Virus record (IMG/VR): IMGVR_UViG_2585427755_000006 | Direction: 5' to 3' (one strand) | Source of the DNA: a virus | Taxonomy: Duplodnaviria > Heunggongvirae > Uroviricota > Caudoviricetes | DNA: 10,517 nt | Shown here: positions 3,247 through 10,270 of the stretch, one piece after another | Numbering within the stretch: the first letter of the stretch is position 1 | How the letters are laid out: each line of letters opens with the position of its first letter | Notes under the pieces: model-generated | Databases searched by the model: none | Seen by the model: the letters and a program-made list of their open reading frames with translations, nothing else | Told to the model about the DNA's origin: nothing | Made by a program: the position numbers and the translations under genes

Positions 3247-3342
3247 AAACGTCCCCGTTTAGCGCAGAAGTCACCGGAGTTGTTCAAGCTCCAATGGCAT
3301 GATTATGGCTGGTTGATTATGGGAAATCAAATGTGCTGAAAA

Positions 3343-3849
3343 TTAGTCTGCCAAGTCTTCCTCAGTCACAACTGGGTAATTCCAAATATCAAAAAAAGCT
3401 ATAGCCTCCTGCCATTTGTTCCATAAATTATCAAGTACTTGTGTAGGTTCCGTACTTTTAAAAACAGAATCAGCCGCATCACCGTTATGAACTTCCTCGT
3501 ACAGTTCCATTATTAGCAGATTAACAAAGTACTGTTTCAACATTAATGCCTGATTACCTTCTTTCTGCTGGCTATCCTGCTTGATGATCTCCATCGCCCG
3601 TACCAGGCACCTGATGATATCCGCTGCATCATTAACGCTCCATTCAGATCCGCGCTTATCTGTAGCTGATGTATTGGCTCTCTCAGCGCAAGCCTTTAAA
3701 GACTCATAAAGGTAAACTCTATTTTGTAGCTGCAGCGCTTTTTTTGACGTGTACCAACTTGCAAGCGCCGACCCCGCTGCGGCTAATGTGCCAAACGCAG
3801 AAATGCCTGCTGCTATTGCACTTAAGTCGGCACTGTCAAAGTTCCACAT
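3343..3849 (-). CDS. Hypothetical 168-aa protein with a single predicted N-terminal transmembrane helix (AIAAGISAFGTLAAAGSALASWY) and an acidic C-terminal domain; no recognised family
   Basis: Clean ORF with ATG at 3847-3849 and AAGGTG RBS. Looks lower in GC than the flanking nin genes (by eye). Sits where K-12 DLP12 has ybcL/ybcM. Confidence 0.7.
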   Translation of the reverse strand: MWNFDSADLSAIAAGISAFGTLAAAGSALASWYTSKKALQLQNRVYLYESLKACAERANTSATDKRGSEWSVNDAADIIRCLVRAMEIIKQDSQQKEGNQALMLKQYFVNLLIMELYEEVHNGDAADSVFKSTEPTQVLDNLWNKWQEAIAFFDIWNYPVVTEEDLAD

Positions 3850-3881
3850 TATCGTTACACCTTATATAAATACCCCTCAGT

Positions 3882-3910
3882 AATATCCAATAAGGTATGT
3901 GAACAATCAA
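3882..3910 (-). promoter_or_regulatory. Candidate sigma70 promoter for the 168-aa gene (-35 TTGATT, 17-bp spacer, -10 GATATT)
   Basis: Minus-strand TTGATTGTTCACATACCTTATTGGATATT about 35 bp upstream of the ATG, directly downstream of the terminator at 4026-4068. Confidence 0.3.
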
Positions 3911-4025
3911 TATAATTTTATCCGTATCGGCACATAGCGATTTGAATGCTACTGGTAATGGTGTCTTTTAGATTATTTCGTCCAGTTTACAGCACCCGTA
4001 TTTTATGAAATGGACTCGCACATTA

Positions 4026-4068
4026 CCCCAAAAAATGCCAGCACTTCCGTCATCGTAGAATGCTGGCA
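4026..4068 (-). terminator. Rho-independent terminator after the 107-aa gene
   Basis: Inverted repeat TGCCAGCA (4036-4043) / TGCTGGCA (4061-4068) followed on the minus strand by TTTTTT (plus-strand A-run 4030-4035), about 20 bp past the stop at 4088. Confidence 0.5.
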
Positions 4069-4087
4069 GTATTTCTAACTAGTGACT

Positions 4088-4411
4088 TTATTGCAACAGA
4101 TTCTGACGGAAATATGGTAACACTCGACTCCACTTATCATCCAGCCACGGCTGGAATTTTACATGTGCCGTTTCTCTGGCGAGGATTGCTCGCGCTCTGG
4201 TGAGTATCTGGGGATATTCTTGCTCGATGGAAGTGAAGCGACCAGCTTCACGATGCTCCGCAACCTGAAGAAGGGGAGTAACGTTCTGGCAGGCGGTTAA
4301 CATCGCATCCCCTGCTCGCCATAACCAGGCGAGTGTGCAAAGTTCGTTATCAGTGAATTGTTTTGTGATTGGGAATTGTTGAACTGCTAGAACGAGAACG
4401 CCAGCATCCAT
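4088..4411 (-). CDS. Hypothetical 107-aa soluble protein; no recognised family
   Basis: ORF MDAGVLVLAVQQFPITKQFTDNELCTLAWLWRAGD... with ATG at 4409-4411 and GGGA RBS. Flanked by its own candidate extended -10 promoter and its own terminator. Confidence 0.65.
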   Translation of the reverse strand: MDAGVLVLAVQQFPITKQFTDNELCTLAWLWRAGDAMLTACQNVTPLLQVAEHREAGRFTSIEQEYPQILTRARAILARETAHVKFQPWLDDKWSRVLPYFRQNLLQ

Positions 4412-4488
4412 TGGCAGTCCCTATAGTAAAACCATAGCTCAGGACGCTTCGTTCAGGATAGATAATTTTATTGTACTTACCTAACTTT

Positions 4489-4522: not shown

Positions 4523-6049
4523 TCAAAAATAAACCTCACCATCAACCATATATTTGAGAGTACTTATCGCCTGCTGGGCGGATATTGTTTTCATTAAAGG
4601 ATAGTGTTTAAAAACAATGCCATTCATAAAATAGATATCACAGGTTTTATTATCTGTATTGATTATGATTTTTTCGAATGTTTTATAGGCAAGTGTACGA
4701 CATAGCTCTCGCCCATTTTTACTGGTTAAGTCAATAGCATGAAAATCACCAAGTGAACTCACCGCTTTACTCTTCAAAGTTTTTAATGATACCGAAGCCC
4801 TTCGTAATTCCTTATCTAATACTCTGATTTTTTCTGCTATAGCGGTAACTTCAGGCGCAACAGATAATGCAGCAATTAAATTATTAATTTTCATCTGGAG
4901 CTCAATAATTTTCAACTCTAAAGTTTCATTAGCATCTTTCTTGTTTTCAACTGGTTGGATTTTGCTACAATTAAAAAGCAACTCATTAATGATATTATAA
5001 TCAACCAAATCTCTCTTTATTGATGGCCTGTCACATCGATGCAGTCTTCTCATCGGACAAACATAATAGCCATGCAAACTTCCAGATACCGCATGAATAA
5101 TCATGGTATTACCACAAGCCTCGCACTTCATAACTGTTCGAAGTAGATTTATCAACATAGGATTTTTGCTACTATTGCTAATACCAAAAGGTGCCAACCG
5201 AATTTCCTGCACAGCGTAAAACAAATCATCTGATATGACTCTGGGATAATAGCCAGCGATTTCACTTATTCCTTTACCTCTTGCACGATATGAAGGTACG
5301 CATATACCTATCAGAGCTTTATTCGCTAATAATTTTTCAATTACAGAAGGCCCCCATGCACTTTCTTTTCCTGAGAAATTTTTTACAGCATGATCATTTA
5401 AATACTTGGCTATTGCATTCAATGAGCGCCTTTCCATCCTGAGTTTAAAAATTAGCTCAATAGTTTTCACCCTGTCGGGGTCTGGAACAAAAGCCGTTCT
5501 TTTGTCATCTAAGGATAGCCATCTAGGACAAGACGCCGTCATAATCGTACCTGATTCCAGTGCATCCTGCCGTTTTTTCTTCCATGATAATTTAACCCGA
5601 CTTGACTTTATCTCGCTTTCTTCATTTGCCCTTTGTGCTATAAGTATGGCTTTTATTAATGAATATGGCTCATTCAAAGAGTCAATATTATAGACTGTAT
5701 TGTCGCAAAGAGTTATAACATCAATACCGTGATTCAAAATCAATTTCAGACGTTCAATCGCTTCACCGACTTTTTCTCTTGAAAGCCTGTCCAGACTTTC
5801 AACTAACAATGTAGTTCCTGGCAATATATAACCATGCTCTATAGCATCTAAAAATTCCGAAAAAGCTCCTGATTGTGCATGCTTTCCTTTGAATGCACTT
5901 AATCCTAAATCTTCATATGTTATGGTATCAAGATAATAATCACTATTTACCTTTAACCATTCAGCAATAAGTCTTCTCTGTCGGTTTAATGAGTCGCCAG
6001 ACATCTGACCTGGTGATGAAAATCGCATATATGCTATGGCTTTTTTCAT
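4523..6049 (-). CDS. ybcK: Large serine recombinase YbcK (508 aa)
   Basis: N-terminal resolvase-type catalytic motif AYMRFSSPGQ, C-terminal cysteine cluster CEACGNTMIIH...YYVCPMRRLHRCD, and a match to recalled K-12 YbcK. AGGTG RBS. AT-rich. Confidence 0.9.
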   Translation of the reverse strand: MKKAIAYMRFSSPGQMSGDSLNRQRRLIAEWLKVNSDYYLDTITYEDLGLSAFKGKHAQSGAFSEFLDAIEHGYILPGTTLLVESLDRLSREKVGEAIERLKLILNHGIDVITLCDNTVYNIDSLNEPYSLIKAILIAQRANEESEIKSSRVKLSWKKKRQDALESGTIMTASCPRWLSLDDKRTAFVPDPDRVKTIELIFKLRMERRSLNAIAKYLNDHAVKNFSGKESAWGPSVIEKLLANKALIGICVPSYRARGKGISEIAGYYPRVISDDLFYAVQEIRLAPFGISNSSKNPMLINLLRTVMKCEACGNTMIIHAVSGSLHGYYVCPMRRLHRCDRPSIKRDLVDYNIINELLFNCSKIQPVENKKDANETLELKIIELQMKINNLIAALSVAPEVTAIAEKIRVLDKELRRASVSLKTLKSKAVSSLGDFHAIDLTSKNGRELCRTLAYKTFEKIIINTDNKTCDIYFMNGIVFKHYPLMKTISAQQAISTLKYMVDGEVYF

Positions 6050-6230
6050 GGTGACACCTGCTAACGTATGTTTTTATAAACCTTAGTGGTGAGATATAAT
6101 TTTTGTTTAATTTTTATTTAAAAAGACAATTAAGGTCACATTATCTTGAATATACAACAATAATCGTATTGCAATTTTCTTACACCATAATCTTGAAAGC
6201 ACAAAAGAATACATAAAAAAAATAAAGACA

Positions 6231-6276
6231 TTAACAAAAAGCATAAAACGAGGCTCATATAAATATAAGAGCCTCC
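6231..6276 (-). terminator. Rho-independent terminator downstream of emrE
   Basis: GAGGCTC (6250-6256) / GAGCCTC (6269-6275) stem with a 12-nt AU loop, followed on the minus strand by GTTTTATGCTTTTTGTT. Confidence 0.4.
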
Positions 6277-6306
6277 ATATTTTAGTCGTTTAGAAACAAA
6301 TTATTT

Positions 6307-6639
6307 TTAATGTGGTGTGCTTCGTGACAATAAATTAATAACCAACACTCCGGCACAAATCAACATCATGCCTATAATGGCTGGCATGTCCAGCCGTTGG
6401 CCGAAAAATCCCCATGACAGTAAGCTAATCAGGACAATACCGACTCCTGACCAGATAGCATAAGCAATCCCTGTAGGAATATAAGCCAGCGTCTGCGCTA
6501 ATAACCAGAATGATGCACAATAACAAATAATTGTACCAACAGATGGCCATAACCGTGTAAAACCTTCTGAAAACTTCATTAAGGTTGTACCAATGACCTC
6601 TGCAAGTATTGCACCACCAAGATAAATATAAGGGTTCAT
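6307..6639 (-). CDS. emrE: SMR-family multidrug efflux transporter EmrE (110 aa, 4 TM helices)
   Basis: Translation MNPYIYLGGAILAEVIGTTLMKFSEGFTRLWPSVG... matches recalled EmrE. The track ORF carries an 18-codon upstream extension. Confidence 0.9.
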   Translation of the reverse strand: MNPYIYLGGAILAEVIGTTLMKFSEGFTRLWPSVGTIICYCASFWLLAQTLAYIPTGIAYAIWSGVGIVLISLLSWGFFGQRLDMPAIIGMMLICAGVLVINLLSRSTPH

Positions 6640-6654
6640 AGCATATTCTTTCCT

Positions 6655-6689
6655 GTTCAAACTGGAGAGAATTGTACTACAGTTTGAAC
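6655..6689. repeat. Perfect 10-bp inverted repeat GTTCAAACTG/CAGTTTGAAC with a 15-nt spacer, between the ren stop and emrE start
   Basis: Read directly from the sequence at 6655-6664 and 6680-6689. Ends about 16 nt before the emrE ATG. No T-tract, so not a terminator. Confidence 0.5.
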
Positions 6690-6706
6690 TCAACTCACCT
6701 GTTTCA

Positions 6707-8316: not shown

Positions 8317-8566
8317 GCCTAGGTTGAATGTACAAGATTTGCATACGTAAGAGCAAAAGACAAGGGAGAATTGATCAGAGTTATTACCTGCCAACCAACG
8401 GGATATTACGCTTACGTACCATGTAACTAGGAATCCTTGAAGTGGCAGCCTAACTGTGGATACACTGAAATGGCGATTTGGTAACATGTTTCGCACAAGG
8501 CTGTTACTACGCTTAGAGATAATCAGTCATGATTAAATGCTTTGTAAAAAGTAAAAGGAAATTACA

Positions 8567-9181
8567 ATGAAAAAATCAACACTAATTTTAGGGCTTACGT
8601 TAATTGTCTCATCTCAAATACCATCGGCAATGGCAAAAAATGAATCAAAACTTTGGGTTGTTGTTGATCGAACGGAAAGACATACCTGCCCTTCAAGTAA
8701 ATGTGGAGTGGCTGGGAAACTATTTTTCAGGGAAGGCGTAGATTTTCTAGAAAAAAAAGGTGAATGGGTTCGTATAACTGAGCCATATTCAGCCTCATGT
8801 GTGGGAGGGGAAAGCGAATATATTAAAGAAGGTAATAAATCCTGCACAAGAAAAAACGGAATCGTTAATGGCAAGTTTTCAGAATGGGTTAAACTTAGTG
8901 ATCTTAGCAGTGAAAGGCCATCAGATCCTGCTGAAAATGCGAGCAGAAATGATACCTTAATCAAAGGATCTGATGACTACCGTATATACAAAAAAGAGTT
9001 TTCTTCGGCAGCTAGGAAGTTAATAAGTGAAGGTGTCTGCACGGAGAGCGATTTTAAGGAAGTTGGAGGGTGGATGGCATCAAGCAATAAGGGTGAAAAC
9101 ATCTATTTCACATATTGCGGAGGAATGACGTTGTCGAACAGAATATATCTAGACGTTAAAAGTGGAAAGACTTTTAGATAA
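8567..9181 (+). CDS. Secreted/periplasmic hypothetical protein (204 aa) with cleavable signal peptide and an SH3b-like N-terminal region
   Basis: Signal peptide MKKSTLILGLTLIVSSQIPSAMA with AxA cleavage motif. The stretch LWVVVDRTERHTCPSSKCGVAGKLFFREGVDFLEKKGEWVRI resembles a bacterial SH3 fold. Six cysteines. AAGGAAA RBS. Lies in the AT-rich island. Confidence 0.7.
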   Translation: MKKSTLILGLTLIVSSQIPSAMAKNESKLWVVVDRTERHTCPSSKCGVAGKLFFREGVDFLEKKGEWVRITEPYSASCVGGESEYIKEGNKSCTRKNGIVNGKFSEWVKLSDLSSERPSDPAENASRNDTLIKGSDDYRIYKKEFSSAARKLISEGVCTESDFKEVGGWMASSNKGENIYFTYCGGMTLSNRIYLDVKSGKTFR

Positions 9182-9841: not shown

Positions 9842-10270
9842 ATGAAATTAGACCAGCAATATCTAAAAGATCTACTTATCGCATTCGAAAAAACTTATGG
9901 CCCTGACACGATGCTTAGTGAACTAGAGGATAATGGCTTTAATAGATATGACCAAAATTTTATTTTCCATATGCGATTATTATGTGACTACGAATTAATA
10001 GTTAGGGTTGATGGAAAACCTGGGTTCGGTCATATAATGTCCAACGAGTTAGGGGAAGGTGTTGAATATAGTTGGCTCGAAGTACCACTGAGGTTGACAG
10101 CAAGAGGGCATGATTTTATTGCTGACTTACGTCAAAAGGAGGTCTGGCAAGCTATAAAAACAAACTTTAAGGATGAGGGAATTGGTACTCTTATGAGTGT
10201 TTCAAAATCACTAGCAAAAGGCTTTGCAAGAAAAAAAATAAAAGATATTACAGGAATAGATATTGAATAA
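9842..10270 (+). CDS. Hypothetical 142-aa protein, prophage cargo, no confirmed family
   Basis: ATG at 9842 with GGAGG RBS (cacGGAGGcggcaATG). Clean AT-rich ORF ending 36 bp before the IS911-like terminus. Confidence 0.7.
   Translation: MKLDQQYLKDLLIAFEKTYGPDTMLSELEDNGFNRYDQNFIFHMRLLCDYELIVRVDGKPGFGHIMSNELGEGVEYSWLEVPLRLTARGHDFIADLRQKEVWQAIKTNFKDEGIGTLMSVSKSLAKGFARKKIKDITGIDIE

Follow-up and report, generated by a model that had tools for sequence, protein, structure and literature searches.

The locus examined here raises the question of what a small protein with a predicted membrane anchor does where the replication genes of a lambdoid prophage meet its nin genes, and whether it might act there against other phages. 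The protein is the product of ORF168, and the window, by which we mean the whole stretch of 10,517 nucleotides that was analysed, belongs to a DLP12-like defective lambdoid prophage of Escherichia coli. On its minus strand the window carries, in order, ren, emrE, ybcK (serine recombinase), a 107-aa remnant of rha, ORF168, ylcH, ybcN (NinB-like), ninE, ybcO, rusA, ylcG, and quuD. The prophage is defective in that IS2 has entered quuD, both P and rha are truncated, and there is no immunity region. The IS2 element occupies positions 1–1330 (InsC/InsD ORFs at 47–457 and 415–1320) and severs the 3′ end of the Q-antiterminator gene quuD (1245–1673), so that homology to quuD of strain K-12 begins at window position 1331. 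The features on which the following argument rests are collected in Table 1.

Table 1. Features at and around ORF168, with positions counted from the first nucleotide of the window.
Feature	Positions	Strand	Description and basis
ORF168 coding sequence	3343–3849	minus	168 aa plus stop codon; ATG at 3849; member of PHROG 1779
Shine-Dalgarno sequence AAGGTG	3858–3863	minus	8 nt upstream of the ATG; seen in the sequence itself
Putative N-out/C-in anchor	3754–3825	minus	Codons 9–32; Ala/Gly/Ser-rich, weakly hydrophobic helix; family hydrophobicity, charge bias, AF2
Acidic all-helical bundle, predicted to be cytoplasmic	3370–3744	minus	Codons 36–160; composition, alignment, AF2
Acidic C-terminal tail T-[DE]-E-D-L-x-D	3346–3366	minus	Codons 162–168; family alignment
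Promoter-like element upstream of ORF168	3882–3910	minus	TTGATT (3910–3905), 17-bp spacer, GATATT (3887–3882); weight matrix, phylogenetic conservation
Inverted repeat ATACCTT...GGGGTAT around the −10 element	3870–3898	minus	Pairing in 79% of cells vs 30–44% in slid controls
Terminator-like hairpin	4030–4068	minus	10-bp stem, 13-nt loop, T6; directly after the stop codon of the rha remnant, upstream of ORF168
Truncated rha/antirepressor remnant	4088–4411	minus	P22AR C-terminal domain; profile matches; the full-length gene precedes ORF168 in intact phages
Variable cargo segment (rha remnant and ORF168)	3332–4483		Replaces ybcL-ybcM of K-12 DLP12
Promoter-like TTGATT-17-CATAAT upstream of ylcH-ybcN	3302–3330	minus	9 of 12 consensus matches

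ORF168 is a real and constrained protein-coding gene, as an earlier note made from the letters of this DNA had taken it to be. The length of an open reading frame is weak evidence by itself, and we count the gene as real because of a full-length profile match, its homologs, and the substitution pattern between them. Residues 1–168 align with positions 2–169 of the 169 positions in the PHROG 1779 profile (E = 1.3e-100), which places ORF168 in that family. The family itself has no functional annotation, so membership explains nothing about the mechanism. Close homologs amount to 14 clusters, 1.84 billion proteins yielded 34 representatives at 50% identity, and further homologs were detected down to ~20% identity. 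Against diverged homologs, in those comparisons in which synonymous sites are unsaturated, dN/dS is 0.10–0.16.

Of 5426 complete E. coli genomes, 181 carry the gene (~3%), O104:H4 outbreak strains among them, and it also occurs in two of 50,697 phage records, the induced lambdoid phages PhiR5_1 and PhiR26_1. DNA identical to the window occurs in several complete E. coli chromosomes, for instance that of strain 1409, where ORF168 is annotated as a hypothetical protein. Older annotations, again with the strain 1409 chromosome as an example, call only the C-terminal 83 codons. A cluster of 83-aa proteins (P0018, 60 members) was considered as a set of truncated pseudogenes and rejected, since its members are alternative calls of the same DNA from the internal Met86. 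Literature searches with the phage names, the protein accessions, and the PHROG identifier returned nothing relevant to ORF168.

The reading frame is intact in 52 of the 56 copies that were fetched, and at 16 of 44 close loci an intact copy adjoins an rha gene that is broken or truncated. Segregating sites among the E. coli alleles comprise 4 synonymous and 14 non-synonymous positions, giving a pN/pS of ~0.9, and some of the changes fall on positions conserved in the family (K37Q, Q42H). The alleles show no sign of recent purifying selection in E. coli, the polymorphism being too sparse to decide, and with a ratio this high the retention of the gene is not strong evidence for selection. This ratio and the damage to quuD, P, rha, and the immunity region would suit a reading in which ORF168 of the window is an inert passenger of a decaying prophage. 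We consider that reading very improbable, because the open reading frame, the ribosome-binding site, and the promoter-like element are intact both here and in nearly all other copies.

Comparison with K-12 delimits the piece of DNA to which the gene belongs. Homology between the window and K-12 ends at 3331 and resumes at 4484 (K-12 counterpart 570,470–572,283), so that the interval between ybcK and ylcH holds the rha remnant and ORF168 here vs ybcL-ybcM in K-12. Of 44 close loci, 28 have a full-length rha gene upstream of ORF168, 5 have the truncation seen in the window, and 11 have a broken gene. In the window, rha is reduced to its C-terminal 107 codons beside a low-GC emrE-ylcJ-ybcK block (4523–6693, minus strand; ybcK has 36% GC), a block that perhaps took the place of the 5′ part of rha; the emrE-ybcK block is itself partly deleted in O104:H4. 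The intact phages PhiR5_1 and PhiR26_1 carry O, P, ren, variable cargo, Rha, ORF168, and NinB through to Q on a single strand. Diverged homologs lie downstream of replication genes and in the orientation of the early-right operon, often directly before NinB or DUF1367, with DUF551 or unknown proteins as the upstream neighbour; a gene for an SRAP protein on the opposite strand is also seen. Where the gap to the upstream gene was taken in such diverged loci, it is 72–83 nt. The homolog of Erwinia phage 49 sits among early-left genes, between erf and xis-int, and on the same strand as those. In every locus examined, therefore, the gene is co-oriented with the neighbouring early genes.

The base composition of the gene also sets it apart. 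Its GC content is 44.0% vs 48–53% for ybcN, ninE, ybcO, and rusA, which agrees with what the earlier note had seen by comparison with the nin genes, and the homologs lie below their 3-kb downstream flank in 10 of 10 loci examined. Morons have been described by extra DNA, a deviant GC content, a promoter and a terminator of their own, and expression from a repressed prophage (PMC3594210); in the passage that gives this definition, that article cites the genome paper on HK97 and HK022 from 2000. For ORF168 the extra DNA is the segment 3332–4483, which is absent from the same slot of K-12 DLP12, with neighbours that vary between loci, and the deviant GC content is as just given. A terminator-like site downstream of the gene was found neither in the window nor in close relatives within ~260 nt, so that here ORF168 lacks this one of the moron features. 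Taken with the conserved promoter-like element described below, the cassette that K-12 lacks, the low GC content, and the variable upstream neighbours support the reading of ORF168 as a moron-like accessory gene, in line with the proposal that it is a prophage moron with its own promoter.

Other cargo occurs in the same slot elsewhere, on the opposite strand, namely PD-lambda-1, a pyocin-S-like gene accompanied by a small partner, and a gene for an AAA_15 ATPase (loci L012–L013, L016, and L003). Homologs of DinI, which are co-oriented, are found as well in this interval of lambdoid prophages, between replication and nin genes. This region of lambdoid prophages behaves as a cargo and defence hotspot. 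Elsewhere in the window, a 204-aa open reading frame on the plus strand (8567–9181, ~38% GC) has an apparent N-terminal signal peptide (MKKSTLILGLTLIVSSQIPSAMA) and matches nothing in Pfam or PADLOC; it possibly encodes another secreted cargo protein, belonging to the early-left end of the prophage. A 142-aa DUF2513 protein (9842–10270, plus strand, E = 1.3e-10) lies in the low-GC stretch adjoining it.

Whether ORF168 is transcribed on its own bears directly on the moron reading. The candidate promoter that had been pointed out at 3882–3910 does exist as a sequence element, a weak match to the consensus that is conserved in diverged homologs. TTGATT-17-GATATT agrees with 8 of 12 consensus positions, which is below the threshold of the consensus scan, and for that reason the scan did not call it. 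A crude weight matrix places it 17th among the ~105,000 sites of the two strands of the window, and no site within 240 nt upstream of ORF168 scores higher; in a stretch of that length ~0.19 such sites are expected by chance. Seven homolog loci keep the TTG, the 17-bp spacing, and GATATTA without any change; the spacer, the sequence further upstream, and the upstream gene differ. For five of these seven loci, compared with the window, the synonymous divergence pS is 0.65–0.88. An element that is kept while synonymous sites are saturated is good computational evidence for an autonomous promoter, though not proof, and on balance we lean towards predicting that ORF168 has one. In other subfamilies, TATAAT or GATATA precedes the start codon by 26–46 nt. 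A second occurrence of the motif GGATATTAC, at 8401 of the plus strand, has a 25-nt spacing that lacks promoter geometry, and we took it to be chance.

Around the −10 element lies an inverted repeat that is conserved but has little covariation and so does not establish an RNA structure. The repeat could act as an operator, as an attenuator or RNA hairpin in read-through transcripts, or as neither. At three loci (L004, L059, and L063) the arrangement ATACCCT-N15-AGGGTAT encloses the −10 element, and in other subfamilies the stretch from TATAAT to the start codon contains a GC-rich hairpin, CCCCTC-N8-GAGGGG, instead. Inspection by eye of the element upstream of ORF168 revealed neither a LexA box (CTG-N10-CAG) nor a CII-type TTGC-N6-TTGC repeat, and Rfam gave no match anywhere in the window.

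The hairpin after the rha remnant was recovered by direct folding, a scan for hairpins with a T-run having missed it because of its long loop; the 73-nt stretch that contains it folds at a dG of −19.3 kcal/mol (z = −1.8), and its stem is unchanged in four close relatives. It has the same position as the annotated tR2-like terminator before ninB in P22. Hairpin and T6 together could insulate ORF168 from upstream transcription. Downstream, the observation that no obvious terminator follows the gene held for the window and the close relatives alike. Two homolog loci do have such sites, a strong terminator in L007 and a weaker hairpin with a T-run ~210 nt downstream in L010. The second promoter-like sequence, TTGATT-17-CATAAT, is kept in K-12 DLP12 and in a homolog locus at 63% identity (L004); since it lies outside the cassette and is common to K-12, it belongs to the ylcH-ybcN nin module.

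This transcriptional setting also suits a different kind of gene, an early accessory gene of the lytic cycle that is expressed mainly from the antiterminated early operon once the prophage is induced or a cell infected. Its membrane-tethered helical bundle would support phage development by binding some factor of the host or the phage, as in host takeover, in counter-defence, or in the control of a membrane-associated process such as division or replication; the internal promoter would then be minor or have another role. Such a gene would be expected to share, as ORF168 and its homologs do, the strand of the neighbouring early genes in all contexts, early-right or, in Erwinia phage 49, early-left, to lie at a short distance from the upstream gene in diverged loci, and to have transcripts that continue into ylcH-ybcN for lack of a detected terminator, and the protein does look unconstrained within E. 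coli prophage remnants. A gene inside an operon, however, would not need a conserved promoter-like element, and the low GC content and cassette behaviour of ORF168 do not fit well either. Nor does its rarity, both in phage records and among protein representatives, which means that the gene is dispensable for lambdoid growth. We regard a lytic-cycle role as less likely than not, but as almost as probable as the anti-phage role discussed below.

Returning to the moron-type cassette with its own promoter, we turn to the architecture of its product. The earlier note had described one strongly hydrophobic helix at residues ~9–32. The helix is present, but its hydrophobicity was overstated. For the copy studied here the Kyte-Doolittle mean peaks at 1.59 over 19 residues; 74% of the residues in that best hydrophobic window are Gly, Ala, Ser, or Thr, and insertion is disfavoured both by the summed Hessa scale (+2.7 kcal/mol) and by the octanol sum after Wimley-White (+2.2). 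Across the family the corresponding Kyte-Doolittle median is 1.86, with values of at least 1.6 in 21 of 25 members. The N-terminal flank of the helix is free of Lys and Arg in 21 of 25 members, and the C-terminal flank has 2–6 of these residues in 24 of 25; the charge-count exception, P0041, was scored on one of its own extra N-terminal hydrophobic segments. This relative has three further hydrophobic segments N-terminal of the family helix, and the orientation of these segments fits an out-to-in passage of that helix. The topology of membrane proteins is assigned by the positive-inside rule, and from the flank charge bias together with this rule we infer an N-out/C-in orientation, with membrane insertion likewise predicted from sequence and the bundle placed in the cytoplasm. 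AF2, run with a 34-sequence alignment, predicts one unbroken helix over residues 6–62 that leads into the bundle, at a confidence of 54–66 for residues 1–30.

The unfavourable insertion sums in this copy, the preponderance of small residues in the segment, and the low AF2 confidence at the N-terminus would also be expected if the protein were cytoplasmic and not inserted, with the Ala-rich helix serving for soluble oligomerisation in the manner of an Ala-coil or for peripheral binding to the membrane. Most relatives, however, are clearly more hydrophobic, the charge bias of the helix flanks is conserved, and one relative fuses three additional hydrophobic segments to the helix, and we judge a non-inserted protein improbable. 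The membrane-anchor reading is plausible and gains from the family hydrophobicity and charge bias, and we hold a membrane-anchored architecture, as predicted from these properties, to be likely.

Behind the helix, the acidic soluble domain that had been proposed is indeed there: residues 36–168 have a pI of 4.65, with 22 Asp and Glu vs 14 Lys and Arg. The tail T[DE]EDLxD is invariant among the close family and kept in most distant members. Structure prediction and a fold search had been suggested as checks, of which the first yielded a compact helical bundle in AF2 (mean pLDDT 79; blocks 5–9 at 89–97) and the second no specific or informative match to the model. Near-invariant polar positions in the family are limited to S31, Q42, and N59, and the remaining conserved positions are hydrophobic or aromatic (L51, A55, W70, A85, F108, L112, and W146). 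The family conserves no catalytic residues, a pattern that argues against an enzyme and makes partner binding its most likely activity.

Searches by similarity were equally sparing of clues. A profile search of PDB sequences returned nothing for ORF168, the NCBIfam models gave no match, and none of the defence-protein models of PADLOC-DB v2.0.0 matched at E <= 1 (0 families). In Pfam, a match to Foie-gras_1 (E = 0.023) was sub-threshold and is put down to chance, a YebO-type profile was not matched in the scan at E <= 1, and Pfam and NCBIfam together showed no similarity to host-function families.

The whole explanation that we prefer, with a probability of roughly 0.35, is that ORF168 is a self-contained moron-type cassette with its own promoter, encoding a bitopic binding protein that interferes with phages. 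The putative weak sigma-70 promoter at 3910–3882 could keep the gene expressed in a lysogen or in a defective prophage, and read-through of the early-right operon would add a second route of transcription during lytic growth. In the product, some eight acidic N-terminal residues would face the periplasm, one Ala/Gly/Ser-rich helix would span the inner membrane and probably self-associate, and an acidic helical bundle of ~130 residues with the T[DE]EDLxD tail would sit in the cytoplasm, where the protein most likely acts through a binding partner on the inner side of the membrane. The likeliest outcome would be that other phages are hindered, whether through exclusion during DNA entry or at an early stage, or through an abortive infection based on the membrane. 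The sequence data show that the gene is real, that it has the character of a cassette, that its promoter-like element is conserved, and that the hydrophobic segment and charge bias are common to the family; membrane insertion, topology, expression in lysogens, the binding mechanism, and any anti-phage role are what we infer.

Phage exclusion is common among the characterised small membrane proteins on prophage cassettes, such as gp15 of HK97 and SieA of P22 (PMC3594210, PMC10883804), and for this reason an anti-phage role is kept as the single most likely outcome for ORF168, though we hold it less likely than not. Specific support for superinfection exclusion or abortive infection by ORF168, as the earlier note had suggested, was not obtained: with no PADLOC match and no similarity to SieA or SieB there is no link by homology or experiment to defence or exclusion proteins, and nothing found discriminates between exclusion and abortive infection. 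Since ORF168 is always co-oriented with early genes, a role in lytic growth is equally open, and the opposite orientation of the known defence cargo at this slot counts against the preferred explanation. A protein that, as the predicted topology has it, is almost wholly cytoplasmic would, moreover, differ from most of the characterised DNA-injection blockers.

A more specific version of the anti-phage reading is that PHROG 1779 is a hitherto unnoticed single-gene system of lambdoid prophages, constitutively expressed and tethered to the membrane in the N-out/C-in orientation. The bundle and the T[DE]EDLxD tail would sense a component of the incoming phage, upon which the helix rich in small residues would oligomerise and block DNA entry or collapse the membrane, with the promoter controlled through the inverted repeat. 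In this full form we think it unlikely.

The moron-like features would serve equally a gene of lysogenic conversion outside defence, one that benefits the host by modulating a membrane-associated function, for instance transport, division, or a response of the envelope or to stress. The cargo of the slot in other strains includes genes of the host-physiology type (emrE, ybcL, and ybcM), which would suit such a role, but ORF168 has no similarity to host-function families and its family is confined to prophage contexts, so that we give this possibility little credence.

Comparison with characterised proteins helps to place the preferred reading of a membrane-anchored, phage-directed moron. The closest in general design is gp15 of HK97, a YebO-related superinfection exclusion protein that is a small inner-membrane protein of a lambdoid prophage (PMC3594210), and like ORF168 it is encoded by an inserted cassette with a GC content unlike that of its neighbours and with expression signals of its own (PMC3594210). 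The two have no sequence relationship, as ORF168 matches neither the YebO family nor any other Pfam family; gp15 lies in the tail operon and ORF168 in the early-right accessory slot; a folded cytoplasmic domain is predicted for ORF168; and ORF168 is not known to have an exclusion phenotype. SieA of P22 has three predicted transmembrane helices and a cytoplasmic motif, FxRYPxEAxxFNK (PMC10883804). It is close to ORF168 in size (162–164 aa vs 168 aa), but ORF168 has one hydrophobic segment and a different genomic location. The SieA motif is absent from the ORF168 sequence, and hhalign gave probabilities of 0.1% against P22 SieA and 0.15% against SieB (P22/lambda family). With respect to size, gp15 is about one third as large as ORF168.

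In composition, the helix of ORF168 resembles SAR domains and the TMD1 of pinholin, with 58–74% Gly, Ala, Ser, and Thr and a marginal hydrophobicity, the comparison sequences being approximate. Rz-type i-spanins and SAR endolysins have an N-in/C-out topology and are located in lysis cassettes with partner genes. ORF168, in contrast, has the opposite charge bias (N-out/C-in), its attached domain is a predicted cytoplasmic helical bundle, and it lies outside the lysis cassette without a muralytic or holin partner; the lysis genes essD, rrrD, and rzpD are situated away from it. An assignment as an i-spanin (Rz-like), a holin, or a SAR endolysin was therefore rejected, given the position between the replication and nin modules and the opposite charge bias. 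By description only, ORF168 also recalls p16.7 of the Bacillus phage phi29, an early gene product that anchors phage DNA replication to the membrane and consists of an N-terminal membrane helix, a helical region, and a small cytoplasmic helical domain; the domain of p16.7 binds DNA, whereas that of ORF168 is acidic.

If the anti-phage role holds true, ~3% of complete E. coli genomes would carry it, O104:H4 outbreak strains included, and the junction of replication and nin genes in lambdoid prophages would stand as a hotspot of cargo and defence. If ORF168 acts instead in the lytic cycle, it would be one more dispensable early accessory gene. Either way ORF168 is an orphan, for which the conserved promoter-like element offers a concrete and testable handle.
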